Under the pieces are notes generated by a model, which saw only the letters and a program-made list of their open reading frames with translations, searched no databases and had not been told where the DNA came from. Shown piece by piece: positions 19,031 through 57,239 of a DNA stretch of 64,000 nt (within the stretch, counting starts at the first letter, position 1; the number at the start of each line of letters is the position of its first letter). Source of the DNA: Dictyostelium discoideum (taxonomy: Eukaryota); contig CM000154.2 in NCBI GenBank assembly GCA_000004695.1, positions 2,720,001-2,784,000 of the forward strand. Direction: 5' to 3'. The translations under genes and the position numbers were made by a program.

Positions 19031-19033
19031 CTT

Positions 19034-19645: not shown

Positions 19646-19682
<37 letters not shown>

Positions 19683-20343: not shown

Positions 20344-20374
<31 letters not shown>

Positions 20375-20533: not shown

Positions 20534-20564
<31 letters not shown>

Positions 20565-20843: not shown

Positions 20844-20899
<56 letters not shown>

Positions 20900-21187
20900 C
20901 GCAAAATGGTGCCATATTAATTAAATTTCATTTTTTCAGACCATTTTTGCTTGGAATTTTAAAAAAAATTTTTTTTTTTGTTGGCCAAAAAAGACATTGT
21001 GATCAAATGTGTCATTTGATTTATTTTTAGCATTAATTTTTTAAAAAATTTTGAAAAGGATCATTAATTTTTTTTTTTTTTTTTTTTTGACGAAGGGTTT
21101 GTGTATGAAATGTTTTTTTATTTATTTTTAAAATTTTTTTTAAAATCGGGAAATTTATTAGAAAAAAAAAAAAAATAAAAGAGTATC

Positions 21188-21246
21188 GGCCACATAAATA
21201 CCAAATTAATTCGATTCAATTAGTTGAATTTAAAGTTATTGGCCCT
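21188..21246 (+). repeat. 57-bp conserved element, copy 1 (cggccacataaataccaaattaattcgattcaattagttgaatttaaagttattggcc)
   Basis: The second copy at 26205..26262 has 54/57 identity, in the same orientation, 5 kb away. Copy 1 lies inside the open 5' extension of the CDS at 21295. Copy 2 is intergenic, followed by poly-T. Confidence 0.6.
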
Positions 21247-21294
21247 TCTTCTGAATTAAACATTATTTGTGAAAAAACTGATACAATTGGACCA

Positions 21295-23346: not shown

Positions 23347-23898
23347 TATTTCACTAGAAAAAAATTATTAAATAAATCATTTTATGAGAAATTTTATAAT
23401 CGAAATCTCTTTTATTTCGAAAAATGAAATTATTTGATAGAAATTGCATATTTTTTTTAAAGTAAAATTTGAACACAAATTTATTTATTCTTTCATTTCT
23501 TAAAATAATTTTTTCTAATAATTCTTTAATTTTAAAGAAATGATAGAATTATTTGTCCCATACCAAAATTATATATGATAAAATTAATAAAAACAAAAAA
23601 AGAGAAAGTTTTGAAAATGAAATTTTATTAAATGTTTACATTGGACCTATCAGTGAATAATTGAATTAATTCTAAACAAAAAAAAAGTTTTTTTTGAAAA
23701 AGATTGAGTTATCCCGGAGAAGTTCATTTTTTAAACAAAAACAAATTATTTCAAAAAAAGTTTTTTTTTTTTTAAAAAATTCCAAAATCTTTTAGCCAAA
23801 GTTTTTAAAATCTTTTTTTTTTTTTTTTTTTTTTCAAAATTTCAATTTAAAAAAAATAAAGGAAAAAACACACCAAAATTAAATAAGTAAGAATAAAA

Positions 23899-26002
23899 AT
23901 GAAATATTTATTAGTATATTTACACATATTACTATTTTGTTTATTAAAGATCAATAGCCAAAAGTATTGCACTTATAGTGGTGTTGGAGAAGATTATAAT
24001 ATCAAATTTGATGTCTTACAAACAAAGTATGTAATTTTTTTTTTTTTTCTTTCTCTTCTTTTTTTTTTTTTTTTTTTTTAAAAAAAAAACCTAATTATTT
24101 TTTCTTAAACGTTCAAACAGTGGTGGTATTGGTTTTCTATACTCATATTTAAGTGTTATTTTTACAACTTGTAATTATACTATTCCTTGTGGTAGTAATA
24201 GTAATAATGTATTGTGTGGATCATATCATTCAACTGTTCCACGCAAGTATCTTTCATTGGGATTTGTTAATGGCAGTACACATAGTTATAGCAAAGACGG
24301 ACTAATGATAACATATATATCACAGGATACAACAAATGATAATGATTGCAAAAGATATACAACAAATGTGATTTTTCAATGTAGACCAGATGGTGATGTA
24401 TCCGATTCATTAGATGTTGGCATCGACAATATACTTATTGATTCATGTATTGTTGAATTCACACTCTATTTACGTACAGTGTGTCAAACATGTCCAAACT
24501 GTTTAAAAACACATCAAACATCATGTAATGTGAAAAGTGGTTGGTGTACTTGTGATGGTAATACAAAAGGTTTAAATTGTGATCAATTAAATGCAAATAT
24601 ATCATCGGTATTAACACCAACAATTAGTGGTGGTGATGTTATAATGTCTGGTGATTTTTCAAATATTTATAATATTAGCTCAAGTATTACAATTTCAATT
24701 GGTACTTCAATTTGTAATAGTGTTATTTTCTCAAGTAATAAATCACAAATCAAATGTACGATAGGTGCAGGTGAAGGTGATCAACAAATTAAATTATCAG
24801 ATGGAAATGGTGCAACATTAATATATGATGGATTTTATTATAGAGCTCCTTGTTCAGTCGAATGTTCACCATTTGGTAAATGTAATGATCACGTTGGTAA
24901 TTGTATTTGTAATGATGTTGCAATTGGTACAGATTGTAAAACTTTAAATTTACAATTAGATTCAGTAACACCAACATTTGTAACTGGTGGTCAAGTTTAT
25001 TTAAATGGTAATTTCCTAAATGTCAAAGATCTTAGTCTAACTATTAAAATCGGTGATATAGAATGTTCAGATGTTAAATTCAACGATACTAATTTCAAAG
25101 TTTTGCAATGTATAATTCGAAAAGGTGAAGGTATTAAAGATATTATAATATCATCAGGTTTGCTATCATTTTCAAAAGCAAAAGCATTCGAATATCAATA
25201 CTACAAATGTCCACTCAATTGTTCAACACCAAATGGTACTTGTGATAATAATACTGGTAATTGTACATGCCATAATGAACATTTTGGTAATTCTTGTGAA
25301 TTTACTCGATGTCCACTCGATTGTTCGACACCAAATGGTACTTGTGATAATAATACTGGTAATTGTACATGCCATAATGAACATTTTGGTAATGGTTGTG
25401 AATTCACTCAATGCCCACTCTATTGTTCAACACCAAATGGTACTTGTGATATTAATAGTGGTATTTGTACATGTGATAATGAACATATTGGTAATGGTTG
25501 CGAAATTAAATTTATTGAATGTAAACATAAATGTTCAACCAAACATGGAATATGTGATAATGATAGTGGTAATTGTAAATGTGATACTCAAACAAAAGGA
25601 TTAACGTGTGAAGAATCAAGATTATTAATTGAATCATTAGACTCAATCAATTCAAAAGGTGGTACAATAAATATAATTGGTTATTTTGGAAATACAACAT
25701 CATTATTAACAATTAAAATTGGTGAATCACAATGTAAAAATATCAAAGTATTCAATGAAACAACATTAAAATGTGATATTGGTGAAGGTAAAGGTATTCA
25801 TAATATTACAATCATTGATGATGACCTTTCGTTCACAGCAATCAATAAGTTCCAATATCTCGATGAAAAAACAAAAATCTCAAAAATATCGAGAGGTGCA
25901 ATTGCTGGTATTGTTGTTGGTTGTGTTGTTGCTGTTTCATTAATTGGTTCTATTGCTTTTTATTATCATCACAAAAATAAAAAGGTTAATCTTTTCTTCT
26001 AA
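23899..26002 (+). CDS. Type-I membrane protein: signal peptide, MRH-like domain, IPT/TIG-like and three tandem EGF-like repeats, TM; join(23899..24026,24121..26002)
   Basis: Exon 1 is MKYLLVYLHILLFCLLKINSQ/KYCTYSGVGEDYNIKFDVLQT (track ORF 23899..). A phase-2 donor AA|GTATGT sits at 24027 and the acceptor CAAACAG at 24120. Exon 2 is the track ORF 24212..26002 extended 5'. The MRH-like Cys pattern is C..Y..G...F / CGS...LCGSY / CKRY..NVIFQC / CIVEFTLYLRTVCQTC. Three nearly identical 40-aa EGF-like repeats (CPLNCSTPNGTCDNNTGNCTCHNEHFGNSCEF) are encoded by a 120-bp tandem DNA repeat at 25201..25560. The TM is AIAGIVVGCVVAVSLIGSIAFYY. Confidence 0.65.
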
Positions 26003-32167: not shown

Positions 32168-35046
32168 TTACAAATTAACTTTATAGTTGTATATTTGATC
32201 ACGCATTGCACCTTTTGATATTTTATTGGCATCTGCAAGTATTTTATTCCAAGATTCTCCGACAATATCAAATACTCTGCAATTAAATATGTCTCCATTC
32301 TTTCCCTTTAAAATTATATTTTTGGTTAATAAAAATTAATAATAATTAATAATTATAATAATTATAAAAATAATAATAATAAAAATAATAAAAGTTGATA
32401 CAAACTAAATCAGTTAATAAAAATCCTTCACGAAATTGTTGGCAATATTTGTAAAGGTCTAAACAAGGACTATAAGGACTACGGTTATATATATGATGAA
32501 CTGTAACCACTGTTTGATCTATAATTATATCTTTTCCACAAAAACTAATAACATCTTGATAAGTTTTAAATTGTTGTGTCAACATATTATTATTATTATT
32601 AAAAAAATAAACTTTGTTATTTGAGTTATAAATATTTCCAAGAAGCATTCTTAGAGCAATATCCATTTCAAACATATTGTAACCATCTTCTTGACCTAAA
32701 GGATCTATAAGTTTTTCTATACCTTCTAAAGCAAATTTAGTTATTTGTTGATCATCATCATCTCCATTTGCTTCATAGAAATATGAAATTATCTTATTTT
32801 TTTCTGTACAAAGGTACTTAGTTTGAAAATTGTTACAATTATCTTCATCTTTACAAAAAACAATATGTGGATAATAAAAATTTGACTCCCAACAAAATTG
32901 AATTGGGGCATCCAAAGTATAAAGATTGTTTTTTCTTATAACCATTTCTTGAAATGTTTTAAAATCTATTTTACCACCACCATTAATCTCTACATTCAAA
33001 TCGATTTTGTCTGATGGTGGTGGAAAACTCATTGATGATCCAGTTAGTTGATAATGTTGTTGAATTTTACTTATTCTTTCCATATCATCACTATTTTCTT
33101 TAATTACCAACCTTGAAATAAAATCATTAATACCTTCTTTAACTTTTGAGTTATAAAATGTCCTTTCTCCACTTGAACTTATATAGTAATACGAATAAAC
33201 TTTTTTTGAAAAAAATTTACTAAGAGTTGGGCTTTTGAAACAATGTACTGATCCTCCTCTATGAGCCTATTTTTGAGTGTTATGAAAAATCAATTTTATT
33301 AAAACTAGATTTTAGAAATCCATAATTTAAATATAAATTTTTACTTACCTGTTTTTCCATAAAATTATTATCACCAACACAAAACCATATATAATCATAT
33401 TGATTAGGTTGGGTTGGTACAACTTCATCAGGAAAATCTCGTTTAAATTGAATAACTGAAAAAGCTTGTTTTGAATGATCCTTTTTTCTTGTAATAATTT
33501 TATTATTAGGAGCATAACCAGTTATATCTTCAACTTGATATACTTTACGTTCAAGATTTGTAACTTTTCCTGTTTCAATGTCATTATAATGTTGAGTTTG
33601 TAAATAAAAGTTTCCTAATAGTGAAATTTGTTGACCACCAAAATCCATCTTTAAGGTTGAAATGTATGTCCAAATGTTTATTAAATTTTTATAACTCAAT
33701 TTACTGGGATCCATATATCTTCTTACACCATTAATATAGTTTTTCCCTAATTGGTTATCTTTGTTATAAAATTGTTTTTGATAAAAATATAATTTTTCTG
33801 AATATTGGTTATAAAGTGTTTCTAAATGTTGCTTTTTACTGTATTCCGAAAAATAATATGCCTGGTTTAAAAAGTTAATTTTTTTTTTTTTTTAATAAAT
33901 AAGGTAATTTAAAGATTTTGATTAGATTAATGAAAATACACATACATGCTTTGCCAAAACATACAATGGGAATTTATCATTTTGGTCCAATATTTTAACA
34001 TCTTTAACAATTCCGGCTGTTACTTGAGATTCTCGAATATTAATATTTTCGTAATGAATATTTCTCTTTTGAAAATCATTTGTATCAGGTATTCTCATAA
34101 AGCTAACTCTTGGAAATTTGGCAGGATCTAAATCATCTAATATATTTGTTAACTCTAATGATGAGAGTCCCCAATTGACCGCCAAACCATTAACGTAACC
34201 AATAACTGAATTTGTTAATACCAAATGTCTATAGATACCAACTTCAATCCCTGTTTTTGAAATCGGATAGCAATATGCATACTGTGCTTGTTGTAATTTT
34301 GGGTTCTTATCTTTTGGTATTAAATTCAAAAATTAATATTAATAATAAAGGAATGAAATTGGTTAAATGTATGAAATAATGAACCATTACCTCTTAAATT
34401 TTTATCTTTATGATTAAAAACTTCTAAACCAGGATTAAATCCACCTGTTTGTGGCTTTTTTGCAAATTTTCCTTTCTCCATAGTTTCATCATTTCTACTT
34501 GTTCTAAACAAAGGAAATGCTGTAAAACTATGCATCACATGTATACCACCATCTTTGTTCCTACAAGTTCACAATGTGTTTAAAATAATAAATCAATTTT
34601 TAAATTAAGAAATTAATTTTCCTTTTTTTTTTTTTTTTTTTTTTAAAAAATTTAAATAAAATTAAAAATTAAAATATTAATATTTACCAAATAAAAAATC
34701 CTTTTGAATGTCCACCTATTGGATCTTTATCTCTTGTTTCATCTGGATGATCATTGTAGGTAACATAATTATAATCTGGGTTTTCCATTTGGTTGAATGT
34801 TAATAAAAACGCTGATTCACTATCATATCTTAATGAATATTCAATTCCTATTTTTTCAGTTATGGTATCAGAGAAACTATTCCAATAATAAATTCCACCT
34901 TCTTCAGGTAACTGGTAAATGTACCATTTTCTTATTTTATCGTTCAATCCAATATCTTTTCCTCCTTGTAAACACATGGGCTGACAATAAAATAATTGAA
35001 TATTAAATATAATTAAAATTAAAAAAATTAAAATAATCTTTTTCAT
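32168..35046 (-). CDS. Secreted multi-exon protein, possible Ntn-hydrolase/phospholipase-B-like enzyme; complement(join(32168..32305,32406..33266,33348..33861,33946..34310,34391..34560,34688..35046))
   Basis: Exon 1 (track ORF 34684..35046) starts with a signal peptide MKKIILIFLILIIFNIQLFYCQP and ends TG|GTAAAT. Five further GT..AG introns join the track ORFs 34326.., 33922.., 33280.. and 32346.. in frame. The final 45-aa exon GKNGDIFNCRVFDIVGESWNKILADANKISKGAMRDQIYNYKVNL* replaces the implausible read-through tail ...INFYYFYYYYFYNYYNY. The functional call rests only on overall size, secretion and motifs such as AHRGGSVHCF, and it is weak. Exon 4 is 1 nt off a multiple of 3 (caveat at 33301). 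Confidence 0.45.
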
Positions 35047-35099
35047 TTTATTTGTTGTAATTATTTTTTTTATTCTTTTTAAAGAAATTAAATTATTTT

Positions 35100-35119
35100 A
35101 AAAATTAAAATAATTATAA

Positions 35120-35178
<59 letters not shown>

Positions 35179-35621
35179 TTTTTTAAAAACCCAAATTTTG
35201 GAAATTTTGGAAAATAAAATTTTTTTCCCCCCAGGGGGGGAAAAGGGAAAATTTCCCAAAATTTTTTAAATTTTTTAAAAAAAACCCCCCAAAAAAAAAA
35301 AAAAAAAAACCCAAAAGGTTTTTTAATTTTTTCCAATTTTTTTTTAAACCTTCAAAAAAAAAAAAAAAAAAAAAAAAATTACATTTTTAAAACATTTTCC
35401 AAACTTTAAATTATAAAACCGGGGCAAAATTTGGGAAAATTTTTTTTATTATTATAAATCCCTCCCTAAAAAAAAACCAAACAAAAGGGGTGTTGCCCAA
35501 AAAATTTTAAGGAGGGCCCCCCCCCGGTTTAAAATTGAAAAAAAAAGTTAAATTAAATTTATAAACGGTAAAACCTTTTTTTTTTTTTTAAAAAAAAAAC
35601 TTTTTTTTTTATAAAAAAAAA

Positions 35622-35675
<54 letters not shown>

Positions 35676-35690
35676 CCATTTTTGATTGTG
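35100..35690. other. Probable low-quality or artefactual sequence (stuttered homopolymer doublets)
   Basis: Strings such as ttttccccccagggggggaaaagggaaaatttcccaaaatttttt...ccccccaaaaaaa...ggagggcccccccccggttt have every base expanded into short homopolymers. This is unlike the surrounding genomic texture and typical of poor base-calling at a read end or contig join. Confidence 0.4.
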
Positions 35691-35695
35691 ATAAA

Positions 35696-36379
35696 ATGAA
35701 TAAAAAATTTATTTTATTATTTATATTTTTATTATTTTCACTGATAAAAAGTGAAAATATCATAATTATAAATAATGAAACTTTTTTAAATCAAACAAAT
35801 TTAATTTTAAATTCATATTATTCACTAAATGATAATATTTTCAAAACTTCAATAATAAATAATGAATTAATATTCCAAGATTCAAGTATAACATTTTTAA
35901 ATCAACATGAAAAAACATCAATTTACAAAGAAGATTTATTAATTAAAAATGGAGAATATCAATTAAATGGTAAATCAACAATTCCAATAATTTTTATAAG
36001 TTTACAACAAATTTTAAATTCAATAAATCCAGTATTGGAATTATCAAATATTGAACCAATAACCAAAATTACAGCAATTGTAAATTCTTATGATGGTAAT
36101 GTGATTGTAGAAGGTTATGAAAGAATTCCAATTTTTTATAATGAATTACAAAATAAAGTTGAATTTTATCAATCAATTTCAGATATTATTGCTCATATGA
36201 TTATTGATTCAATTAAACCAAACCTTGTTTCAAAAAATAAAGATAGTTTATTTCAAAATTATGATTTAACAATTAACGATTGGGAAGAATCAATATCATT
36301 TTTAAAAGGTTTTAAGAATTTTTTTTCAATTTTAATTAAAAAGGTAATTAATCATTTAAAAAAAAAAAAAAAAAACTAA
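35696..36379 (+). CDS. Secreted 227-aa protein with signal peptide; either an independent gene or the signal-peptide exon of the downstream giant gene (junction unresolved)
   Basis: Track ORF MNKKFILLFIFLLFSLIKS|ENIIIINNETF... A canonical donor AAG|GTAATTAAT at 36344 is phase 0. A clean 87-nt mini-exon candidate (36454..36540, acceptor CCTATAG, donor AAAG|GTACGT, open only in phase 0) follows. The next exon of the giant gene at 36690 requires a phase-2 donor. No consistent splice path was found, so it is kept separate. Confidence 0.45.
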   Translation: MNKKFILLFIFLLFSLIKSENIIIINNETFLNQTNLILNSYYSLNDNIFKTSIINNELIFQDSSITFLNQHEKTSIYKEDLLIKNGEYQLNGKSTIPIIFISLQQILNSINPVLELSNIEPITKITAIVNSYDGNVIVEGYERIPIFYNELQNKVEFYQSISDIIAHMIIDSIKPNLVSKNKDSLFQNYDLTINDWEESISFLKGFKNFFSILIKKVINHLKKKKKN

Positions 36380-36689
36380 AATGATTATGGATAAATTATT
36401 AATTAATTTTTTTTTTTTTTTTTTTTCTATTTTGTTATTTCCCATACCTATAGATTGCATTCCCAAAATTATCAGATTCTGTAACTGAATCAATCTATAA
36501 TGATAAATCAAATTCATACATAAACATTAAACATATAAAGTACGTATAAAAATCTGATTTTTAATTTACAAAAAAAAAATATCTTTTCTCAACATAATAA
36601 CTTTTTTTTTCATTTTCGATTTTTCTATTTTTATTTTTTATTATTTTAATTTTTTTTTTTTTTTTTAATTTTTTTTATTTTTTTAATAG

Positions 36690-39600
36690 GCCAAAAAATA
36701 ATCCCACATTCTCTTCATTATCAATTTCATCAACATTGTTGGATTTATATCAAGGAAATGTTGATAAACAAAATAAACCAGTTTTCTTTGAAAAGATAAC
36801 ATTGTTGTCAATGATTACAAGTTTAAAAAATAAACAAGTTATCGATATTGAATCATTTTCAAAAGTATTATTAGAAAATAATAATTTAGAAATTGGTAAA
36901 TCAATTGAAAATATATTATTTTTAAATAAAATAATTTCAACTTGTTCACTAGTTAATTGTTCAACTAATACATCATCCTCTTCAAGATCAATAAAAGCAA
37001 TTTTAAATCCATCAACATTTAACAATACAATTTCACAATGTATTTATTATGATAAAACTAGAAATCAATATTATGATTTAACTCCATTAATGTTGTATGT
37101 ATTTATATATTTTTAAAATAGTATCAATAATAATAGGAATATTGAATAATATAATATTAATATTTTTATTATTAAATTATATATTATATTATTCAATATT
37201 ATTAGACCATCAAATCAATTTTATAATGTAACTAAAGCATCAGTTACAGGAGGTGCAGTTTTTTTTAATTTTTGTACGAAAATTACAAAATGTGATTCAA
37301 TTGCATCAACAACCAAACAATCAGTGGCTTGTCAATCAACCATTGAACTAGCTTCTCTTAATCTTGCACATACTACAACTTTTCCAACCACTGATGGTTT
37401 AACACTTGCATATACAGCACCTGCTACAGGTACTTGCTCACCTTCAAGAAAATTGTCATATGTTTTCGTATGTAATCTTGCTCAAGAAATGTTAGCTGAT
37501 GTCACTGTAACTGCCAATGCATGTACTTTTACTCTTACCATTCAAACAAAATATGCATGCAAGAATCAAGCAGTCTTTTATTTAAATGGAGATCTTTATG
37601 ATTTAAGACCATTACAATTGTAAGTTTACACCCCTTTTTTTTTATGATCATAATAAATTATTAATAAAATCTTTATATTATTAGAACATATCCAAAACAA
37701 TTTCAAGTTAGATTAACACCATGGAATTATCCAGCAGGAGTAATTAGATATGTTTATTTCAATATTTTTGCAAAATCTAAAATGTGTGAAAATACAACAA
37801 CTGGATCAAATCATGCATGCTATATCGATAGTACAAATAGTGGAGTGATTGTTCCAATGAAGGAGCCAGTCTATACAATTGAAACTCAAGATTTAATTAA
37901 AATTCAATATTTTAGTACAGCCCCTTATTTTCCAAGTTGCCCAAATCCTGTATTGGAAATTAATATCAAATGTAATCCAACAGTTGATTATCAATTCCCA
38001 AGTTCAGTTTCTTATGAAGATATGTGTAGTTATCCAATTCTTATTATTGAATCAAGATATGCATGTCCAACAATGCGTTTCTTAAATGGTAAACAATTTT
38101 ATAGTTTAGAATCCTTACAAAAACAATCAACTAATCCATATCAAGTAGCATTTGGATCCAATTATAAATTACTTTTTAATTTTGGTGGTATTGTTGATAC
38201 ATGTGTACAAGCTATGCCAGCAACAAATCCAACAAAAAGAATTCAAGCTTGTCAAATTCATAATACCAATCAAACTGATGTTCGTATAATTGGTGTTGTT
38301 AATTTAGGTCCATTCGTTAAATTCTCTTACAATTCAATGACATTAGAGTATTTTACAGAAACATTAACAAGTGAATGTCCAACCAATGGCAATCGTAGAT
38401 CTATTAGATTAGTATTAACCTGTAATCCAACCACAGATTATTTAGTAACTAGTGTAGTCGAAAGTCCATTATGTGTCTTCCAAGTAAATATAGGCTCAAA
38501 GTATGCTTGTGATTCATTGATATTTTTCAATGGGTATAGTTTTACAGATTTAACACCATTGAAATCCCTCCAAAGATACACTGATATCAGTGGTGGTAAC
38601 ACTCTTACTCGTTTATATTATTCAATTGGTGAAGCTCATCCAAGTTGTTATACACATGCAACTGCCAATTCATCATTAATTTATCAATCATGTACTTTTC
38701 CAAACTCAACAGTTTCACAAATTGGTGGATTAAAGAATAGTTCTTATTCATTTATAAATGGTGGTAAGAGTTTACAAATTACCTATTCATCAGATGTTAG
38801 TAGTAAAGTTAAATGTGGCGTTTCCTCAACCCAAACTTTTAATGCCCTTACATTTCAATGTGATCCAGTAAATGAATTTGTTCAATCCCTATATACTATT
38901 CCAAGTGTTTGCTATTATGAGGTTAAAATTAATTCATCATATGCATGTTCATTTCCAAAACTTGAAGATTCACCCAAAGCTATAACATCAATCTCTCAAC
39001 CAAACGGTTTTGCCGGTGATCAGTTAACCATCAATGGTGTAGCGCTCCATCAAACAGATAAGGTTATTTTCTCTACACTATTATTTGATGGATCAGTTCA
39101 TAATGAAGTTGCAACAATTATTTCAAAAACATCAAATCAAATCATAGTTCAAATACCATATGGTTATAGAGATTCTGTAATTTATCTCATATCTGCACTT
39201 GGAGTAAAAAGTAATAGTGTTCCATTTTATTTTTCTCCAAATGTTGATCTTTTAATTCCAGAATTTGAAATAAATAAAATAAATAAAATTTATTTAATTG
39301 GTAATGGTTTAGGTTCATTATTTTCAGCAGTACCAAGTTATTGGGTAAATGTATATGCCACAAGAAATTTCACAGGAAGATTCAAGAGTGAATTAACTTG
39401 TGTTTTTGATAGATATTGTTCTACAGGTGGATCCCAATTTCAACCTATACCTTTACCAAATGGTCAACCAGGTATAACATGTATTGAAAGTGAATATTAT
39501 TTAAATAATACCTCTCTTAGATCAAATTTAACAGATGTAGTGGTTTGTCTTGAAATTCCTTATAATATTGGTACTGGTACGATTGATGCTATTGTTTTCG

Positions 39601-42600
39601 GTCCTGGTAGTCTTTCTCAAGTGTTCTCTTCATCCTATAGGTATAAAGCCCCAACTATTATACCACCAAGTATTGATAGTAATGTTAAATTAGTGGTTCA
39701 AAATGAAATAATTACAATCAAAGGTGCAGGTTTTCCAAATTACTCCTATAATAAATATAGTTCAAATCTTGCATGGGAGAAAAGCTATGTTTCATTTGGA
39801 CCTTCTTATCAATGTTTAAATGTTGATTGGAGAAAAACAAATGAAATCTATTGTAAAATACCACCTGGAATTGGATCAAATCTTTTATTATCAGTTACTG
39901 TTGGTGATATCACCTCTAAAGCCTCTCTAAATACAACAAATAATTATTATATTTCTTATAATACTCCAACTTTAACACCAAATATTTTATTTTCTGGTGA
40001 ACCAAGTACTCCATCTAAAATCACAATCACTGGTAATTATTTTATTCCAATTGAATTAGTGGTTGCTGCAACTAGTACTCCAAGCATAATCAATTCATTG
40101 GAAAATTATATAATGATTGGTAATGGTAGAAAATGTGAAAATGTTCAATGGATTGATATAAATACAGTTATTTGTACTCCACCAATTTCAACAAGTTCAA
40201 ATCTCGATCAGTTATATCCAATCTCTATAACAGTTGGTGGTCAAACATCAATTGGTGGTAATGTAAATTTTAGATATTACAATGCTTCTTGTTTTTTCCC
40301 TTGTAATTCAAAACCAACCGTAAATACTCCTTCAAATTTTGTATCAACTTTATATGAAAATGGAATTTGTTCAAATCAATTAGATAATAATAATATTCCA
40401 AATGGTAAATCAATTCAACAATTAGAACAATTTTTCATTGATAATTGGACACCAAATACAATTAACAATGATTGGAAATCTGGTCAATTTTATAAAACAT
40501 TCTTTAGAGAACCAAAACAAACCATTTCAAGCTTATCTCAATTTATTGTACAACAATCAAATGATTCAATTTGTGCCTACGATAATTTATCAGTTACTCC
40601 ATATATATCAGTTCAAGATTTAATTACAATTAGCAATGATTTAAATAATTTAGTTGAAAATTCATTTAAAACTTTAGAAATCGAAAATGGATTCCAAATT
40701 TCCTATTATAATGTAACAAGCAATTCAAATGGTAATGGTCTTGCAATTGTAAAAAGCAATGATAAATTATGTAGTTTCGTTGAAAGTTCCTATGATGTTC
40801 CAAGTTTAAATCAAGCATTACAATTATGTTTTGAATCTTGCTATTTCTATTTTTGTAATGATACTACTCAAAATTATCAAATATTATTAGCTAATTCAAA
40901 TGATTTAAAAAGTATTCTATTAAAATCTGGTATTTGTTCAAATGATATCGAACAATATAATTTCCAACTATTAGAATCCATACTATCGAATCAATTATTT
41001 TATAATGAATTTGAAAGTGATTGGTCAAGAGGTCCACTTTTAAATTTACTTTCAAATACATCAAAGGCAATCAATCAAATATCACCATTTATCAAATTAA
41101 ATTTTCCATTAACATATAGTTGTATCTATGATACACCATCAGCAAGTAAAATTACAATTTCAAAATTAATAGATATAGTTGATGATTATAGAAGATTAAT
41201 TGTTAATAAAGTTTATAATGAAACTAAGGATTATGGTGGTGGTATTTTGAAATCTTATTTTTTCAAATTAAATAGTGATAGTAATACTAAAGGTCTTGTA
41301 ATAGTTACTCGTGATAATAAGATTTGTAGTATCGTTGATTCTTTATATTCAGATTTTACTTCAGATTCAGTTATTACAACTTGTGATATGATTTACTCTA
41401 TTACATCTGTTCAAGTTATAAACGATTCAGTTAAACCATATAGGGTCAGATTTGAATTACTTGGAAATTTCGTTGGTGATATTAAATTTGGTGATGATCA
41501 AATTTGTAATCTCGTTTCAACAGAATTTACAGGTCTTTATGGATATAGGGAATGTTTATTTGATGATATTAAAAATTCAGCCACATTAACATATCAAGCA
41601 AATGGTATTACCATAGTCGATGATTTTAGATTTAAATTCCCACAACCAATAATTACAAATATTGAATATTCAACCACACCATTAGTAATTGCAAATTCAG
41701 ATATTACAATCACAGGTTTAAATTTATTTAGAGATAATGATGTAGTGAATTTTAAAAACTTAAAAGTAATGATCAATCAACTTGATGTTACATCAACAAT
41801 TAAAGATTCAACAATAAACCCAACAACTGGTTTTTCAACATTTAAAATCAAAGCAATTGGTAGGGGAGAGGCAAACAGAATCATTGTTTATTCAGATGAT
41901 TTTGAAATTCGAACTAATAAATCAATTATGGGTGTAGATTTTTCTCTTATTTATACTTTAGAATCACCAATTTTATCATCATTATCAAGCACAACAGGTC
42001 AACGTGGTGACATGATTAAATTATTTGGTTATTTCCCACAATGTATTCAATGTAATGAAACCATCATTTTATTTGGTGACAATCAAGTTTCTGATTTTAC
42101 AATTATAAGTTCAACAGAAATTCAAGTTATTGTACCATATGGTTTCGATAAAGTACCCATAATAGTAATGATTAATCAAGTTTTCAATCATGATGATAAT
42201 TGGGTTTATTTTTCATATCCACAACCAGAAATTCATCAAATTATAAAGAGTTCAAGCATTGAAACCTCATCAAATAGTCCATTTTGGGTTTTTGGTATTG
42301 GCTTAAATCCACTTCCAACAAATCCAGATTCATTCTTTACAGCTTCTTTACTATCAACTATTTACGATGCTGATAATGATGTAGATGGTGATAATCTTAA
42401 ATTGGAATGTGAATTTTCAGACTTTTGTTATAGAAACAAAGTTTATTATATTGATGGTGGTGATGGCACTGAAAATAATCAAACAATTCCAAGACCAACT
42501 TCTCAAATTGATCCAAATAATTTTGATCCATGTATAGAGTTGAAATCTCAATATTTTGAGAATGTAGAATTTGATACATATGTTTGTTATTTAATTCCTG

Positions 42601-45600
42601 GTATTGGTAAAGATTCTGTTGTTGAAATTCAAATCATTCAAGATAATGTTTCAATTAAAAGTAGTTTCAACTATTCCTATGATTTACCATTAATTAATTC
42701 ACTTGAAATTTTACAAAGTAATGGTAGTGATTCTTCCTCTTCCTCTTCTTCTTCTTCTTTTGAATTAATAAGAAATAGTACAAATGGTGGTTTAAATTTA
42801 ATTATTGATGGTTTAAATTTCCCACCAACCGAAATATTTACATTGTATAGTAATGAAGATATTTTTACAGAAAATGATTGGATTCCAATTGAATGGTCAG
42901 TGAGTAATTTATTAATTGGCGAATTTGGTTGTAAAAATATTAGTTGGATAAATTCAAGCACAATCGAAGCGATTATTCCTCCAGGTGTTGGTAAAAATTT
43001 ATCAGTTTCAGTATTGGTTGGTGGTCAATTACCATCTACCAACACTAATTACTCATATTCATATGATTTACCATCATTGGATAATAAAGAGTATACAGTA
43101 TCAACCGATGGTAATAAATTTATTACAATAACAGGTACAAACTTTGTTCCTCTCGAATTAGCAAAACAATTTAATGAAAATCCAAATCAATATCAAACTG
43201 AAAATTTTGTTGAAATTACTTTTAATAAAAGTCATACACAACATTGTGTCGGTATTAAATGGATAAATTCAACAACATTAGAATGTAAAGTTTTACCAGG
43301 TATTGGAAAGAATCATAGTATATCAGTAACAATTGGTAATCAACATTCAATCTCAAACACAACTTTTTCATATAGCAAACCAATTATACCATCAAATAAA
43401 TTTTACTCATCATCAACTCATGGCAATGATGAAATTACAATTGAAGGTGATAATTTTATACCAAAAGATTTAGTAAATCAATATAACAGAAACAATGAAA
43501 ACATCAATGACAATGGTGAAAAAATTAACAGTATATTCATTGATGATAAAGAATGTACATCAATTGTATGGATTAATTCAAAACAAGTAAAATGTAATGT
43601 ACCAGTTGGTCAAGGAACCAATTTAAAGATTAAGGTTATAGTTGGATCACAAGAAGTAATAAGACCAAATATTTTCTCATATAATCCACCAAAAATTAGC
43701 TCAATTGAACCAACAAAAGGTAGAATAAATATCGATAATCAAATCATCACTATCAAAGGAACAAATTTTGGAGTTTCACCAAAGGTACTCATTGATCAAG
43801 TTGATCAATGTTCAAATGTATCACTCGTTTCAAATGATACTTTACAATGTACATTACCAAAATCAACCAGTGAAGGAATAAAGTCAATTTTAGTACAAGT
43901 TGAAAACCAACGTTCAAATTCAAAAGAATTTGAATACTATGGCCCACCAACAATTGAAAACATTCAAACTCCATCATTTATTTCATTTGATGGCGGTGAT
44001 AGAATAACATTAATAGGTAAAAACTTTTTAGAACATGGTGCTCCAATCGATAATTTAGTTTTGGTATTACAAAATCAAAATAATAATATTTCAATTAATG
44101 CTATAGATGTAAAAAGTACATCAATTGTATTTGAAACTATAGAAGGTTCAGACTATACTAAAATATATATCGATTTAAATGGTCAAATATCAAATAGTGT
44201 TTTCATGTTTTATTCAAATCCAAAAATTACCAATATCACACCACCAAGTGGTCAATACAATCAAGCAAATACAATTGTAATTAGTGGTTATAATCTTGCA
44301 TTGGAAGATCATAAATCAGATTTAAAGATTAAAATTGGTTCAAATAATTGTGGTGATATAGCAATTCAATCATCAGAATCTGTATCATGCTCAGTACCAA
44401 TCGTTACTAAATCAGAATCTGGTACAAAACCTGTTATTCTAACTTTTTCTCATCATCTTTCAACATCTTCAGAATATACTTACACAAAACAAGATAGTGA
44501 AAGTCAAGAAACTAGTGAAAGTCATGAAACAGATTCTACCACCACTACTACCACATTATCAACAACAACAATTTCAACTACCACTGGTGGCTCATCTACA
44601 ACTACATCAAGTCAATCAACTACTGGCCAATCATCGTCAACATCAACAACTGGAAATCCACCCACAACAATTATTAATACAATTCCATTCGGCTTTGTAT
44701 TTCCCCCACTTCCACCCCTTCCACCAATTCCGATTCCACTTCCACCTCTTCCACCAATTCCAAAAGGAGACTTCCTAAAGTTTGGAGAGTTTAAATTTGG
44801 ACCATTTGATTGGGACTTCCCAGGTACAAATGGAATTGCCTTACCAATTTTACCAATTGGTTTACCAGGTCTTCCTGTTGGTTTAGATTTACCTTCAATG
44901 GGTTATCCATTTGGTTTACCAACAACAGCTCCATGCGCACCAAGAACTCTTAGTTTATTGGCAAGAGCTATTAAATCTGTTGGTGGAATCGTTGGAAGAA
45001 TATTTTCACCACCGGTATTTGATCTTCCTTTCTTTGATCCTTGTAAAGATGATGATGGTACTGATGACAGTGATGACAGTGATGGTAGTGAATATACAAC
45101 CTACAATTCAGCTTCAACAACTACAACTGTTGGTTCAACTACAACTAGTGGATCAACAACAACTGGAGGAGAATCAACAACTGGAGGATCAACAACAACT
45201 GGTGGAGAATCAACAACTGGAGGACCAACAGCAACTGGTGGAGAATCAACAACTGGAGGATCAACAACAACAACTGGAGGAGAATCAACGACTACAACTG
45301 GTGGAGAATCTTCAACGACTGGTGGTGAAACTCCAACACCATCAATAACCCCAACTCCAACACCAACAATAACACCTATTCCTCTTGACTCATCCACTGT
45401 ACTTTGTAACTATAATGCTGATCAAACTATCTTAACAATTTTAAACAATGGCTTAAATAGAGTTTGTTGTACTGATGAAAAAGAATCAAGCTTCTGTTAT
45501 TTTGAAAGTATAGAATGTAGAAAAAATAAGCAAAACAACAATATTTCATGTTTGAGCTATCCATTAGGAGGTGAAGCAATTGATTTCGATGAAAGTGTTA

Positions 45601-47924
45601 AATGTTATATTGCAAGTGAAACCGTATCATGTTTGTTATCAATTTTAGATCCACTTTCAATTCCAGAACCAATATTACCAAATCAAAATTTACAATGTTT
45701 CATCCACACTAATGAAACATATCCAAGTATTTCCATTAAAAATATTAGATCTAATACCTCTTATATTGGTGATGATAATTCAGTTACTCAAAATAGCTTC
45801 TCTTCTGAGCATAAATGTGTTATAAATACTTTAAACAATACAATTGATTGTTCCGATGTAAATAATTTAGAGCCAACCTTAACATTTAACAAATCATTTA
45901 AAGTATTTATCGATAATAAAATGAATTGTTTAATTGAAAATCCATTTTCATCTGAAACAGGTTCAAGTGATAATAGTTCAAACTCCTCAAGTGATTCAAA
46001 TTCATCAAGTGATAATAGTTCAAACTCTTCCTCAAGCAATTCAAACTCATCTTCCGAATATTCATCTTCAGGTTCAAATTCATCCTCATCTTCAAGTGGT
46101 AGCACCTCAAGTTCATCATCATCAAACAATAGTAGCTCAAACTCATCGTCAAGTGACAGTGGTTCAAATTCTTCATTAGAAAATAGTAGCAGTAATAATA
46201 ATTCAAATTCATCATCAAGTGATAACGGCTCAAACTCTTCCTCAAGTAATTCAAACTCATCTTCTGAATATTCATCTTCGGGTTCAAATCCATCATCATC
46301 TTCAAGTGGTAGCACCTCAAGTTCATCATCAACAAACAATAGTAGCTCAAACTCTTCATCAAGTGACAGTGGTTCAAACTCTTCGTCAGGAAATAGTAGC
46401 GGTAGTAGTTCAAATTCATCTTCAAGTTCAAACTCGTCAACATCATCAAGTGAAACACAAAATAGCTCAGAATCTTATGAAAATAGTATAAAGTGTAATT
46501 TCGATACCAACAAAACTACTCTATTAATTGAAAATATTTTGAATCATTCAATATCATGCTCTGATGAATTCAATAATAATTTCACATCCACTGCTCAAAT
46601 TACATGTGAAATATTATTAAATTATAATAATAATACAAATAATTTCTATTCCAATTGCTCTACAAGCGAGAATGAATCCTACATACTTGGTCAATCCATT
46701 AAATGCTCAATTGATGAATATTTGACTTGTTCATTAAATTCACCAACTATTAACAACAATAGTAGCAGTATCAATGGTAGTAGTGGTATTAGTAGTAGTG
46801 ATAGTAGCGTTAACAATAGTACAAGTAGTGACAACAACAACAATAACAATAGCAATAATACTAGTATAGACTCATCTAATAGTAAATCAACAATTTCAAT
46901 CATCTATGATATTGTAGATAAAAGTATGGTTGTAGAAAATCAAGACAAAGAAGAGATCATATGTTTTGGTGATTATACATCAATATTAATTTATTCTGAT
47001 GATTTTGGTTGTTCGATCGTTATGATAAATGGAACAAATTTAATTAAATGTTCAAATAATAATACAGAAACTATGGAAGAGTTAACCTTTTATCAATCAG
47101 TAGAATGTAAAATTGATGATTCAACTCAATCATATTCACTAGTTATTCCGTCACCACCAATTGTTGATCAAGTTATAGAGTGCCATTTCAATTTAAATCG
47201 TACTACACTTGATATTGAAAATAATGGTAGTCATGTTATCACATGCAGTGACAATTTAAATTCTCAAAGATTCAACTTCTCCAAAGGTATCGGTTGTATG
47301 ACTAATGAAACAACAAATCAAATATCTTGTTTTAGTGAAAATCAAACTGCTTTTTTCAATCAATCAGTATCATGCTCATTAAACAAATATATGACATGCT
47401 CTTTAGATGTTGTTTCATTATCATCATCTTCCTCTTCATCTTCATCCTCGTCTGTTAACGGTGGCAATAATTCATCAACACCAACAGTGTCAATGTCATT
47501 AAACTCTTCCACATCAGATTCATCAACATCGGCCTCTTCAATGTCATCATCATCCTCCTCTTCAATAGAACCTAATGAATATGTAATTACTAGTAAATTT
47601 GATATTATCAACAATAGATTAACACTTGAAAATCTATATAACAAAACAATCAGCTGTATTGGTGACCGAAATGCTACCTATACTCTATATTCAAACTTTA
47701 GTTGCACAATTGTTCCATTCAATCAAACAGAAATTATCATAGAATGTTATAATGAAAACTCTTCAATTTTAACATTCACAGAATCTTTTGAATGTAATAT
47801 TGGTTTTTCATTGAAATATTCATTAACTATTCCACAAACTACCCCAACTGATGATGATATTAATAGAAGCAAAAGTAGTATCAATAACTCAAGTCACACC
47901 AATAATAAATCTCAAGAATTTTAA
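36690..47924 (+). CDS. Giant extracellular protein (>3680 aa): N-terminal MRH-like repeats, about 15 IPT/TIG repeats, Pro-rich and very long Ser/Thr/Asn-rich tracts, C-terminal Cys-containing repeats; join(36690..37094,37206..37619,37685..47924), 5' end incomplete
   Basis: Track ORFs 36736..37116, 37324..37623 and 37782..47924 connect through two phase-2 introns. Each donor is TT|GTATGT or TT|GTAAGT (37095, 37620) and each acceptor is TTATTAG|A (37205, 37684), so a Leu codon TT+A is completed at the end of each MRH-like unit (...DLTPLML / ...DLRPLQL). MRH-like units carry the motif C..C..Y.F.C...C.F.....KYAC + F.NG..F.L..L. IPT/TIG-like units include PKAITSISQPNGFAGDQLTINGV.. and PTIIPPSIDSNVKLVVQNEIITIKGAGF... 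The first exon starts mid-codon (phase 2) at 36690 after TAATAG, so a further upstream exon is required. Confidence 0.65.
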
Positions 47925-48639
47925 TTTTTCTTAAAATGCCAAACCAATCTAACAATTTATAATTAAATAAATCTATTGATAGAAATTTTTTTTATTAATT
48001 ATCTAAAATATTGGTAGATTTATGTCCCAATTAAGTCTACAGCAAAAATTTATTTCTTTGTTAATTATTTTTATTTTCAAAATTCTTTTTATTGGATATT
48101 AACAAATTATTTTACAATCCAAGTATATTTTTTTTTTTTTTTTTTTTTTTTGTATTGATTAATTACAGTTTTTCAAGAAAAGGAAAATAATAAATAATTA
48201 TAATTTTTTTTTTTTTTTAAATATTAATTTATTATATGCTGAATCTTTAAGCAATAATAGTTTTTTTTTTAGTTTATATTTTGTTTTAAAATTTATATTT
48301 ATATGAATTGAATCAACAATTACTCTATTTGGTAGTATTGTGCTTGATAAACAATAATCTTTTATAATTTGGTTTTTAATATTTTTAATTTTTTTGATGT
48401 ATTCGATTTTTTAACAAATTGGGAGGGTATCTTTTGATGATGCTAATTTATAATTTTTAACTTTATTTATATAATCCAAGGTCGCTGATTCATACCATTT
48501 TTAAGAATTATATCATTGTATAATGTTTTGGCTTGGATTTGGTTGTCGTTGTGGAGTTTGTCCTAGGTGTGCAAGTCAATCTATTTACCACTAATTTTTG
48601 CATATCTATATGTGTATTATAATTTACAATTTTAAAAAT

Positions 48640-48712
48640 GCCCAGATAGCTCAGTCGGTAGAGCGCAAGGCTTTTAACCTTGTGGTCGGGGGTTCGAGCC
48701 CCCCTTTGGGCG
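48640..48712 (+). tRNA. tRNA-Lys (anticodon UUU), second identical copy
   Basis: Same 73-nt sequence as 7390..7462. An ex-B-like GAGGGTTCAACTCCC lies 27 bp downstream. Confidence 0.9.
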
Positions 48713-48841
48713 AAATTTTTAAATTAATATCGTTGATCGAGGGTTCAACTCCCAGTTTAATGTAATGCCAATATTGATCATAATAAATAAAGGAACACAC
48801 AATTAATATTATATGAATGCTGTAAAGCGTGAATCAAAACT

Positions 48842-55104: not shown

Positions 55105-57239
55105 TTATTTTTTTTGTTTTTTTGAAGCTTGTTGTTGTTTTTGTTGTGATTTTTTAACTAATGGAGCTGGTTTCTTTGGTTGTGGTGCAACTTTAACATT
55201 ACCATTTACATCTTTACCAGATTCAACTTTATTTCTCTTTTCTAAAAGTGTTTGATTAGCAGTAGCTCTTTGTTGATTAGTTTCTTTAACTTTATTATAA
55301 ATCCATTTATCTTTCTTTCTAATCATTAACTCAGCTAATTTAGTATCTTCTTCAGCTTGTTTTTGTTTATTTAATTCATCTCTTTGTTTCTTTGTGAGAA
55401 CTGGTTTAGCAACTTGTTCTGATTCTGATTCTGATTCTGATTCTTCTTCACCATCTTCTTCTTCTTCTTCTTCTTCGCCATCTTCTTCACCATCTTCCTC
55501 TTCTTCATCATCATCATCAACTTCTGAAGATTTTCTCTTTTTACTTTGTTCTTTTCTAAGTTCTTCAGTGTAACGAGTTTCAAGATGTTCAAGATCTTCA
55601 TCATCTTCATCATCAGATTCACCATCAGAGTCAACTTGTTTACGATTATCATTATCATTATCATTATCATCATCTTGTTCAGCGTTGGTATTGATTTTGG
55701 CATCAGCAAATTCTTTTGAATTGATTAAAGCATCGAGAGCTTGTTTACGAGCTGGAATGTAAGAGTCTTCTTCATACTCTACAAATGGTGAAAGATGAGC
55801 AGGTGGGATAACACCAATGGTATATTCAGAGTATGGAAGGAGGAGTTTACTATTGACTGAATCGAAAACCCATTGTGGTTGAATGTATTCTCTAGTGTTG
55901 TGAACTTTTACGGAATTTGATCTATCGACGATTTGATGAGTGATTGATTGATTAACCTCTTTAACTTTATCACCACTACCTGGGAAAGAAACTCTACCAC
56001 CAAATGAAAGAATTACAAACTCTAACATATGACGTGGTACTTCACGAGAAATATAGAAATGGAAACCTTTAAACAATGTTGTAACATCCATAATCTTTGG
56101 AATATTATCAGATTCATTACCAACCAAATCTTCGAAATCCTTTGAAATACCACTTGAATTAACTTGTAACATATTTGTATCCTCTTCAACGATTTGTTCT
56201 TTAATTTCTTTTTCTTCTTTTGAATTGATTTTTGAGATTTTCTCCTCTAATTTCTTTAATTTTGGATCAACTGGTGTGGTGGCAGCAGCGGCAGCAGTAG
56301 TAGATTTAGATTTCTTAGTTGTGTTGTTGGTTTTAGTTTGTTGTTGTGGTTTTGATTCGAAAATATTAATTAATGAATCACATTTTCTTAATTTTGCATC
56401 ATCAATTGTTGGTGGATAAGTTAAACCGATTGAAGTGAAAAGACGATAGTTTACAAATTTCATAAGGGCTTGATAAAATTCTAAAAAGCTAATCATTACA
56501 CCATAATCTACTTCTTTCTCTTTCTTTGAGAGATAGTTGAGTGGTGTAATCCAAGTGATGGTTTCACCCATAACATCGGCTTGGTAATAGACACCCTTGA
56601 CAGAGACAAACACTTTTCTTAATGATTTACTTTGAATGATGTAATATTGGAATTCACGTGCTAATCTTTCACATGCTAAAATTTGATTTTCACGAACTTT
56701 TGCTGATGCATCCATGTTGGCGAATAAATGAATCAATGATAAACAATCATCTAAATCCTTTAATGCATCTTGGAAGGTTGGATAACGCTCTTTAATAATA
56801 TGATCCAATGTAATCATTGGTCTATTCTCCTTCAAATTCTTTAATGCTCCAAATTGTTTCTTATTAATTAATTTCTTTTCTCTATCTTTAAATACTTTTC
56901 TTGCTCTAATAATCTCCAAAACTTTTTCATTTTGTAAATACTTAATATCTTTTGAATAATAATATGTCTTATGTTTTCCTTTAAATTTCTTTTTTGGATC
57001 TCTTGGGTGAATACCTTTAAGAATACATAATTTTCTATAGTTTTTTAATAATAATAAAAATAAATTAATAAATTAATAAAAAAACCAATAAACATATTAA
57101 TTAATAAAATAATAAAATAATAAATAATTTACCTAAAAATTTTTAAAGAGATTTGTAATTTCTTAACTGCTTCATTTCTAGTGATAAACTTTAAATTTTC
57201 ACCCTTTTCTCCTTTTTTGAATTTTTTAATACCACCCAT
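55105..57239 (-). CDS. Pescadillo homolog (ribosome biogenesis, BRCT domain); complement(join(55105..57034,57133..57239)), 678 aa
   Basis: Exon 1 is MGGIKKFKKGEKGENLKFITRNEAVKKLQISLKIF-AG|GTAAAT. Exon 2 follows CTATAG| with A-KLCILKGIHPRDPKKKFKGKHKTYYYSKDIKYLQNEKVLEIIRARKVF... (track ORF 55105..56919 extended 5'). It aligns throughout with PES1: [29 protein letters not shown]..., LDHIIKERYPTF.DALKDLDDCLS, FYISREVPR...SFGG (BRCT), ...IQPQWVFDSVN, and an acidic C-terminal tail. Confidence 0.85.

Follow-up and report, generated by a model that had tools for sequence, protein, structure and literature searches.

A giant MRH–TIG protein locus of Dictyostelium discoideum probably forms one complete five-exon gene with introns copied by exon duplication

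Introduction

The window analysed here, 64,000 nucleotides (nt) of Dictyostelium discoideum DNA (assembly GCA_000004695.1, contig CM000154.2, positions 2,720,001 to 2,784,000 of the forward strand), carries on its plus strand, at 35696..47924, a locus that codes for MRH-like modules followed by IPT/TIG repeats, and the question that it raises is where this giant gene begins and how its modules came to be arranged. An earlier reading of the letters alone (hereafter the sequence-only reading) had taken an open reading frame (ORF) of 3,380 amino acids (aa) as the last exon, had placed two exons upstream of it, and could not join these in frame to a nearby signal-peptide ORF at 35696..36379. It concluded that the true 5' exon was either elsewhere or destroyed by an error in a poor-quality stretch at 35100-35690. 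We find instead that the MRH–TIG locus most likely is a single, complete gene of five exons with a secreted modular product, in which copies of one intron were made by exon duplication and some were later lost. We assign this reading a probability of about 0.82.

Gene model

The ORF list from which the locus had been read is a program-made list of the bacterial style, which necessarily splits the genes of this DNA. The GC content of the window is 19-33% with a mean of about 24%, its intergenic A/T homopolymer tracts are long, and its GT-AG introns are short and AT-rich. Reconstruction from splice sites and reading frame gave five exons that splice into a coding sequence of 11,793 nt with one terminal stop, no internal stop codon and a product of 3,930 aa. 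All four introns are GT-AG, and a composition scan gave AT contents of 67-82% for the exons and 83-92% for the introns.

Exon 1 (35696..36343, plus strand, 648 nt) holds the start codon and codes for a predicted signal peptide (aa 1-19, 35696-35752), which is followed by the beginning of a family-specific N-terminal domain. It ends in phase 0 at the donor AAAAAG/GTAATT at 36344 (here and below a slash marks the splice site). Its end, ...SFLKGFKNFFSILIKK/, aligns with ...SFLKGFKIFLNILVKK/ of D. purpureum and with ...LKGFINFLQISIKK/ of a paralogue, both of which are phase-0 exon ends. Exon 2 (36454..36539, plus strand, 86 nt, CTATAG/ATTGCA to TATAAA/GTACGT) runs from phase 0 to phase 2 and codes for IAFPKLSDSVTESIYNDKSNSYINIKHI-K, and the frame set by exon 1 stays open throughout it. 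Since 86 = 28x3+2, it supplies the phase 2 that the exon at 36690 requires. The sequence-only reading was right that the exon at 36690 starts in phase 2 and that the signal-peptide exon ends in phase 0, an end that we place at 36343, and its proposal to look for a phase-2 donor exon between 35000 and 36690 leads directly to 36454..36539. Its statement that no in-frame bridge exists has to be withdrawn, as the 86-nt exon closes the ORF and has counterparts of 86 nt in D. purpureum and 83 nt in the D. discoideum paralogue P0007; the apparent lack of a bridge came from missing this short exon. Likewise, no 5' exon needs to be sought elsewhere or behind an error at 35100-35690, a stretch that belongs to an intergenic spacer and of which no coding exon is required.

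Exon 3 (36690..37094, plus strand, 405 nt, phase 2 to 2) codes for the rest of the N-terminal domain, up to aa 361, and for the first 19 or so residues of the first MRH module, MRH1 (C362...YYDLTPLM). It is followed by intron 3 (37095..37205, plus strand, 111 nt), a phase-2 intron of the form TT/GTATGT...TATTATTAG/A that comes after YYDLTPLM-L and splits Leu380 as TT/A. Exon 4 (37206..37619, plus strand) has 414 nt, or 138 codons, with symmetric phases 2-2; it codes for the body of MRH1 and the N-terminal hairpin of MRH2 and thereby resembles a duplication unit. Intron 4 (37620..37684, plus strand, 65 nt, phase 2, TT/GTAAGT...ATATTATTAG/A) comes after LYDLRPLQ-L and splits Leu518, again as TT/A. 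The remaining parts of the protein, that is the rest of MRH2, MRH3 and MRH4, the TIG arrays, a pair of domains that we call domain X, linkers and C-terminal Cys modules, are all encoded by exon 5 (37685..47924, plus strand, 10,240 nt with the stop), which is continuous and in frame with the listed ORF; a scan of this exon for hidden in-frame introns found no AT-rich intron-like segments. The 3,380-aa ORF at 37782..47924 therefore exists as described, as a part only of a last exon that starts at 37685. The two upstream exons also stand at 36690..37094 and 37206..37619, but their description as one MRH module each does not, because the first codes mostly for the N-terminal domain and the second for the body of MRH1 together with the first hairpin of MRH2.

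The model was compared with the nearest relatives of the gene. A BLASTP alignment with the D. purpureum protein XP_003287029 (P0004) is unbroken over aa 198-645, spans all four junctions, and contains ESISFLKGFKNFFSILIKK-IAFPKLSDSVTESIYNDKSNSYINIKHIK opposite ESVSFLKGFKIFLNILVKK-ISFPNLSSDKINSIYDYQSKSYINLAKFR. The D. purpureum locus (L001) has the same exon boundaries, with ...VKK/GTAATT in phase 0 and later two TT/A introns. Its exon 2 also has 86 nt (L001 10232-10317), codes for ISFPNLSSDKINSIYDYQSKSYINLAKF-R with the same phases and ends at AG/GTAAAT in phase 2, and a tblastx match joins window 36457-36528 to L001 10235-10306. The colinearity of the window gene with D. purpureum extends over two adjacent models (10001-15033 and 15384-21851), and a DNase II gene on the minus strand upstream of them gives weak tblastx matches to the window. 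From this colinearity and these upstream matches we conclude that the D. purpureum gene is orthologous to the window gene and that the public annotation has split it. In the paralogue P0007 exon 1 ends in phase 0 with ...SIKK/ and is followed by the 83-nt equivalent of exon 2.

Independent Logan genomic contigs agree with the window at 99.92% identity and with no indels over 36658-45197, exon 4 included. Logan contigs with a 99-aa ORF fragment were considered as transcript evidence and rejected, as they are unspliced genomic DNA. In the corrected annotation an intact, predicted secreted protein of 3,930 aa replaces the 3,380-aa ORF and its orphan fragments.

Phase-2 introns

The sequence-only reading had proposed that the introns between MRH modules have stereotyped ends, that each splits the terminal Leu of a DL(T/R)PL(M/Q)L motif, and that modules were added by exon duplication. 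Both introns are indeed in phase 2 and each splits, as TT/A, the Leu that closes this motif, and their ends are as described. The stereotypy is another matter, as it had been drawn from two introns (n=2). We surveyed 28 introns of the window gene and its relatives, 14 at the MRH position and 14 others, and found the donor GTA[AT]GT in 9/14 of the former vs 6/14 of the latter. The ends GTA(A/T)GT...TAG are thus no more than the general, local splice consensus, and the conserved feature is position together with phase.

This position is occupied in relatives too. In the D. purpureum orthologue a phase-2 intron follows (Y/F)xDLxPLx in 4/4 MRH modules, with the split codons TT/A, TT/A, AG/A and GA/A. 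The paralogue P0007 has the same intron in 4/4 modules (AA/T, TT/A, AT/A and AC/T, one of them three codons further along), P0003 has it in three of its four (TT/A, TT/G and AC/A), and an MRH-only protein of Polysphondylium violaceum (P0008) has it in MRH1 (TT/A). Homologues of window intron 3 are found in D. purpureum, P0007 and P. violaceum P0008, and those of intron 4 in D. purpureum, P0007 and P0003. The splitting of Leu is incidental, since at other introns of this position the divided codon is one for Arg, Glu, Asn, Ile or Thr.

In an AlphaFold2 (AF2) model the intron site lies in the loop that follows the N-terminal beta-hairpin of the module, and each exon from intron to intron therefore codes for the body of one module and for the hairpin of its successor. 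Such exons have symmetric phases 2-2 and lengths of 414 nt in the window and 426 nt in D. purpureum. The positions and phases support tandem duplication of an intron-bounded exon as the way in which the MRH array was built, so that this part of the sequence-only reading finds agreement in the orthologue, in two paralogues and in the Polysphondylium MRH-only gene. In the history that we propose, both phase-2 introns of the window gene would be copies of one ancestral intron placed just after the MRH N-terminal beta-hairpin (YxDLxPLx). The array would have grown by tandem duplication of the symmetric 2-2 exon, from intron to intron, and the copies in MRH3 and MRH4 would later have been lost from the D. 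discoideum gene, by which the downstream part was fused into the 10.2-kilobase exon. If so, the locus offers a clean, small example of a domain array grown by duplication of a symmetric-phase exon whose limits do not coincide with those of the structural domain, and of lineage-specific intron loss afterwards.

Intron 3 also holds a 20-nt perfect inverted repeat, AATATTGAATAATATAATAT at 37138-37157 and ATATTATATTATTCAATATT at 37181-37200, with a loop of 23 nt; the acceptor follows 5 nt beyond its end. Chance in AT-rich DNA may account for the repeat, or it may form a hairpin that shortens the effective intron.

MRH modules

The four tandem MRH modules (37039..38948, plus strand, cut by introns 3 and 4) occupy aa 362-498, 499-645, 646-793 and 794-939. 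A Pfam search with aa 1-1000 matched PRKCSH_1 with 25.3 bits (cutoff 23). A profile of the four modules matched PDB entries of CI-MPR (1.1e-6) and CD-MPR (about 0.01) over the full domain. MRH3 was modelled with AF2 (pLDDT 83.7, pTM 0.82), and a Foldseek search of the PDB with this model gave 55 hits with E<=1e-3, of which the 50 listed are all CD-MPR, CI-MPR, OS-9, XTP3-B, Yos9 or GNPTG, with E values down to 8e-8 and TM scores of 0.6-0.7. Profile matches, model and structural matches together establish the MRH fold. The lectin-like N-terminal part and the TIG array of the sequence-only reading are both borne out by Pfam, through PRKCSH_1 and through the TIG match of 160.8 bits described below; the EGF domain for which it had suggested a search was absent from the Pfam results for this protein.

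Five Cys columns are invariant over the four modules (C49, C97, C109, C126 and C138 in alignment A1), and the invariant Cys of the alignment with the orthologue are C48, C64, C121, C138 and C150. In sugar-binding MRH domains a Gln-Arg-Glu-Tyr tetrad is needed for the binding of mannose, as is known from work on MPR, OS-9 and GIIbeta. We scored the tetrad after aligning the modules to domains 3 and 9 of CI-MPR. MRH1 has Gln, Arg, no Glu and Phe in place of Tyr; MRH2 has Glu and Tyr only; MRH3 has Gln, Arg and Glu with Phe for Tyr and comes closest; and MRH4 has the Tyr only. The paralogues keep all of Gln-Arg-Glu-Tyr in their third MRH module, as does D. purpureum after correction of its gene model. 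Judged by these residues, the family probably includes true mannose-type lectins, and canonical lectin activity of the window protein itself is uncertain.

Other domains

The protein is ordered as a signal peptide, an N-terminal domain of about 340 aa, four MRH modules, about 13 TIG domains in two arrays that flank two copies of domain X, linkers and six Cys modules. For the N-terminal domain (aa 20-361) we found no MRH pattern, no Pfam match and, in fold and sequence searches, no known relatives.

The TIG domains were delimited by a local iterative hidden Markov model (HMM) and by Pfam TIG. The first array (38973..40277, plus strand, aa 948-1382) has three clear copies and one that is degenerate and expanded, and the second (41646..44483, plus strand, aa 1839-2784) has eight clear copies and one degenerate. 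With the local HMM the total is 11 clear copies (E<1e-17) and two expanded, degenerate ones; the array of the sequence-only reading is thus present, with fewer members than the "about 15" that it had counted. Pfam TIG (PF01833) itself scores 160.8 bits against a cutoff of 20.9, with six stretches in aa 1470-3930.

Between the arrays lies the domain X pair (40344..41444, plus strand, aa 1405-1590 and 1594-1771). Domain X has about 175 aa, an alpha+beta architecture with a confident AF2 model, four conserved Cys and a DW..GQFY motif, and two copies of it are found in each member of the MRH–TIG family. Searches of Pfam, and of the PDB by sequence and by structure, gave no match for it. It may represent a new fold confined to the giant proteins of dictyostelids.

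A linker region follows the second array (44484..45383, plus strand, aa 2785-3084), and its translation is in turn Thr/Ser-rich and mucin-like, Pro-rich (PPLPPLPPIPIP...) and Thr/Gly-rich. Alternative frames at 44497-46491, in the Thr/Pro-rich region, were considered and rejected as low-complexity shadows. Six Cys modules of about 85 aa each, with Ser/Asn-rich linkers between them, make up the C-terminal part (45384..47831, plus strand, aa 3085-3900). The alignment of the six copies gives the pattern C.f....l.ieN....i.C.d...........C....N...i.C.......F..S..C.i......C.L, and modules of this kind are also found at the C-terminus of the paralogue DDB_G0290813 (BLASTP match to P0020). They have no Pfam match and no known relatives.

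The whole protein has 110 N-glycosylation sequons and 99 Cys. Windows with at least 60% Ser/Asn/Thr cover 584 residues, close to the more than 600 that had been claimed. A hydrophobicity scan found no transmembrane-like segment besides the N-terminal signal, in agreement with the sequence-only reading: internally, no 19-aa Kyte-Doolittle window exceeds 1.64, a score that belongs to a Pro/Gly-rich stretch, and the C-terminus is not hydrophobic.

Relatives and public gene models

An exhaustive HMMER search with aa 1-953 gave twelve relatives, for nine of which we traced the source. Among annotated proteins the nearest relatives all come from Dictyostelium, Polysphondylium or Heterostelium. The members of the family include D. 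purpureum DICPUDRAFT_77883 (XP_003287029) with its adjacent model, the D. discoideum pair DDB_G0290815 and DDB_G0290813, D. cf. discoideum KAM9999923/4 and D. firmibasis KAK5575791, and annotation calls them no more than hypothetical, MRH-domain or IPT/TIG-domain proteins. According to BLASTP and tblastx the family is colinear in the order N-terminal domain, four MRH, TIG, two domain X, TIG and Cys-rich C-terminus. Its N-terminal alignment holds an invariant SFLKGF motif, and its common landmarks are an exon 1 that ends with ...KK/ in phase 0, an exon 2 of 83-86 nt, and phase-2 introns after YxDLxPLx. The MRH–TIG family is dictyostelid-specific and uncharacterised, and the window gene is a clear member of it.

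By the reasoning behind the gene model, public models of relatives also turn out to be split or truncated, in D. purpureum and in the AX4 pair DDB_G0290815/DDB_G0290813. The public D. purpureum annotation (L001 10001-21851) divides the orthologue into models of 1,446 aa and 2,041 aa, the first of which begins internally. At L001 12038-12222 its splice removes 185 nt that hold MRH3 coding sequence (…VSIVYYSSFAAECPSVHQYR and …EILFLFVCDPNN…), and the true intron is much smaller. In AX4, DDB_G0290815 (MRH, 1,544 aa) and DDB_G0290813 (IPT/TIG, 901 aa) are separate genes, and newer annotations of D. discoideum strains have them as one protein of 2,456 aa; P0007 is this merged form. From a comparison of L002 3001-11358 with P0018 and P0020, the AX4 annotation of the pair is probably split.

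In the literature we found no functional data on any family member, and the mentions that exist are lists of mutations or of failed knock-outs. One such entry, an Asp413Tyr change in the chromosome 4 gene DDB_G0283243, a "MRH domain-containing protein" (PMC12954983), was considered as a candidate for the window gene, and the identity could not be established. The codon GAT at window position 37294 is Asp410, 3 residues off, no alternative splice choice adds three codons, and a look at neighbouring gene identifiers turned up nothing.

Proposed function

The functional part of our reading is tentative, and we hold it with clearly less assurance than the gene model. The product would be heavily glycosylated and exported, to become part of the extracellular matrix or of the cell surface. 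In that setting the TIG rod and the Cys modules would serve as a scaffold and as a cross-linker or matrix binder, and the ligand of the MRH array, and of MRH3 in particular, would be a mannose-type glycan or a protein. The interest of the family is that it consists of uncharacterised giants with lectin and Ig folds in a model organism for multicellular development.

A rival view of the function starts from the neighbouring gene. A DNase II family gene lies upstream on the minus strand (33280..35046), with Pfam DNase_II matches of 30.8 bits (34687-35046) and 17 bits (33283-33714). It has a signal peptide, both HxK motifs (GHSKG and DHSKQ) and more exons, possibly down to about 32346. The intergenic spacer between the start codons of these divergent genes (35047..35695, 650 nt) is presumed to be a bidirectional promoter. 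In 4/4 loci examined, the window and L001, L002 and L003, a DNase II gene stands head-to-head with an MRH–TIG gene (window 32346-35046 on the minus strand, L001 6994-9353, L002 1-2540 and L003 1-2502), and these loci include paralogues that are only about 25-30% identical. The pair seems to duplicate and to persist as a unit. Moreover, PPL_04319 of Heterostelium album (P0022, 3,774 aa) has a complete DNase_II domain at aa 1609-1937 together with TIG repeats in a single exon of 4,959 nt (L009 6047-11005, P0022 aa 447-2099). It is a genuine fusion, and it provides a link of the Rosetta-stone type to the DNase II/MRH–TIG pair.

According to this view the window protein would be a luminal or secreted partner of the adjacent enzyme, whose mannose-phosphorylated or otherwise modified N-glycans its MRH modules would recognise. 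The head-to-head pairing in all four loci, distant paralogues included, the shared exon of DNase_II and TIG repeats in a Heterostelium giant that also has domain X, and the signal peptide and two HxK motifs of the neighbour all speak for such a partnership. However, adjacency may reflect nothing but co-duplication, no MRH domain was detected in the Heterostelium fusion protein, and MRH3 of the window protein has no tetrad Tyr; the proposal is drawn from gene context and sequence. We regard it as unlikely, though as the best surviving of the alternatives. The same low rating applies to the wider proposal that MRH–TIG and DNase II genes are a conserved functional pair, co-duplicated, sharing a bidirectional promoter and fused in Heterostelium, in which the MRH, TIG and X domains of the giant protein would be a scaffold that tethers the nuclease, a glycoprotein, or recognises it, and in which domain X may in addition be a new fold. 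If it were true, the pairing would act in the extracellular matrix, for example in the handling of extracellular DNA, or in the endolysosomal lumen, and would be a non-membrane, MPR-like partnership of lectin and enzyme; we know of no mannose-6-phosphate receptor (MPR) in the dictyostelid concerned. The conserved pairing with DNase II is in any case a concrete and testable lead.

Alternative explanations of the gene structure

The look-alike introns might also be independent insertions at proto-splice sites made by the sequence that codes for DLxPLxL. An alignment of window introns 3 and 4 found no similarity beyond exon flanks and splice sites, so that the case for duplication has to be made from position and phase; one intron of P0007 is displaced by three codons; and the conserved motif is a recurring sequence context for insertion. 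Against this, the introns share phase and position in up to 4/4 modules, in the orthologue, in two paralogues and in an MRH-only gene of another genus, the intervening exons are symmetric 2-2 and of module size (414 and 426 nt), and about 14 parallel gains are far less parsimonious than inheritance with loss. We consider independent insertion improbable, and somewhat more so than the DNase II partnership.

Less probable again is a division of the locus into two genes, in which 35696-36379 would code for a separate small secreted protein and the giant gene would start further downstream, for instance inside exon 3 or at the 37782 ATG. An in-frame stop does end the ORF 35696..36379 by itself, 36 nt past the proposed donor, and the public D. 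purpureum model also begins internally, at the position of aa 168. However, homologues align unbroken over exons 1, 2 and 3, the end of exon 1 and the micro-exon are kept in position and phase in both orthologue and paralogue, and exon 3 starts in phase 2 without a start codon context of its own. In DDB_G0290815 (within P0007) a signal peptide and N-terminal domain equivalent to those of the window gene stand at the beginning of one single protein. The weakest alternative, a true 5' exon hidden or destroyed by assembly or base-calling error at 35100-35690, can draw on the likeness of this stretch to stuttered homopolymers with G/C runs unusual for the genome, and on our finding no independent contig over it, but we take it to be the least probable of all, because a complete model supported by homology exists without the stretch, which sits between the start codons of two divergent genes, and because the spacers of paralogous loci (460-500 nt) have no exon inside.

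The stretch at 35100-35690 itself looks stuttered, with runs such as CCCAAATTTTGGAAATTTTGG and CCCCCCAGGGGGGGAAAAGGGAAAATTTCCC, a run of 50 T, and G/C homopolymers atypical of the genome. It is probably a product of low-quality base calling or assembly, and the gene model is unaffected by it.

Against the single-gene reading with its lectin-like secreted product we have to set several points of our own. The splice junctions are predicted from homology and consensus, and the signal peptide, secretion and matrix function are likewise predictions. At the D. purpureum locus nothing could be detected that corresponds to the first 100 or so residues of exon 1, and these align only weakly with paralogues. 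The bodies of introns 3 and 4, as said, are dissimilar. Single MRH modules score under the Pfam cutoffs, so that the sequence match to this family is marginal, and the complete Gln-Arg-Glu-Tyr tetrad is found in 0/4 modules. The probability of about 0.82 given above for the single five-exon gene with duplicated introns takes these points into account.

Other genes in the window

At 21295-26002 on the plus strand, neighbouring ORFs carry DUF7035, DUF7034 and ComC supersandwich domains, with EGF and one TIG after them. They belong to a ComC-like gene for a secreted or adhesion protein, which is unrelated to the MRH–TIG family and is another TIG-containing gene of the window. Three tRNA genes, two for tRNA-Lys(UUU) and one for tRNA-Asp(GUC), are located at 7389-7463, 8187-8259 and 48639-48713, and one tRNA-Lys lies about 700 nt downstream of the MRH–TIG stop. 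Genes for coatomer gamma (5427-7148) and pescadillo (55105-56919, minus strand) were also identified.

Comparison with known systems

The closest systems are the dictyostelid MRH–TIG relatives, with which the window protein shares its order of domains at an identity of only 25-32%. It differs from them in that its gene has no MRH3 and MRH4 introns, in the Tyr to Phe change of MRH3, in its longer Ser/Asn/Thr-rich linkers and in its larger number of C-terminal Cys modules. The N-terminal domain of the window protein is missing from some paralogues (P0003), and P0019 has an Ala-rich hydrophobic stretch after its TIG array that is absent here. Heterostelium PPL_04319 resembles the window protein in being a giant with TIG repeats (20 stretches) and one copy of domain X, and differs from it by the embedded, complete DNase_II and by having no detected MRH.

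The Tgr proteins (TgrB1/TgrC1), which we compare from their description, are single-pass membrane proteins, highly polymorphic, with extracellular IPT/TIG arrays and without MRH. Like these and like other IPT/TIG surface proteins of the plexin/Met type, the window protein has arrays of Ig-like TIG domains, and by analogy a role in adhesion or recognition is plausible. Unlike the Tgr proteins, it has no transmembrane segment, and unlike their polymorphic genes the window gene differs from that of a second strain at only 7 of 8,540 nt (0.08%).

With the MRH lectins, that is CI-MPR, CD-MPR, OS-9, XTP3-B, glucosidase II beta and GNPTG, the window protein shares the fold, as seen in the AF2 model of MRH3, and the landmarks of an N-terminal YDLxPL strand, a C-terminal YAC and conserved Cys, while the similarity in sequence is marginal. 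As in CI-MPR the modules stand in a tandem array, and MRH3 has the Gln, Arg and Glu of the tetrad. In contrast to the MPRs, however, the window protein has only four modules, an incomplete tetrad, and neither a transmembrane segment nor a cytosolic sorting tail, and it joins its MRH modules in one chain to TIG arrays and to further domains that neither the MPRs nor the lectins of endoplasmic reticulum quality control have. The window protein thus shares the fold of the MPR/MRH lectins, yet it is not itself an MPR.

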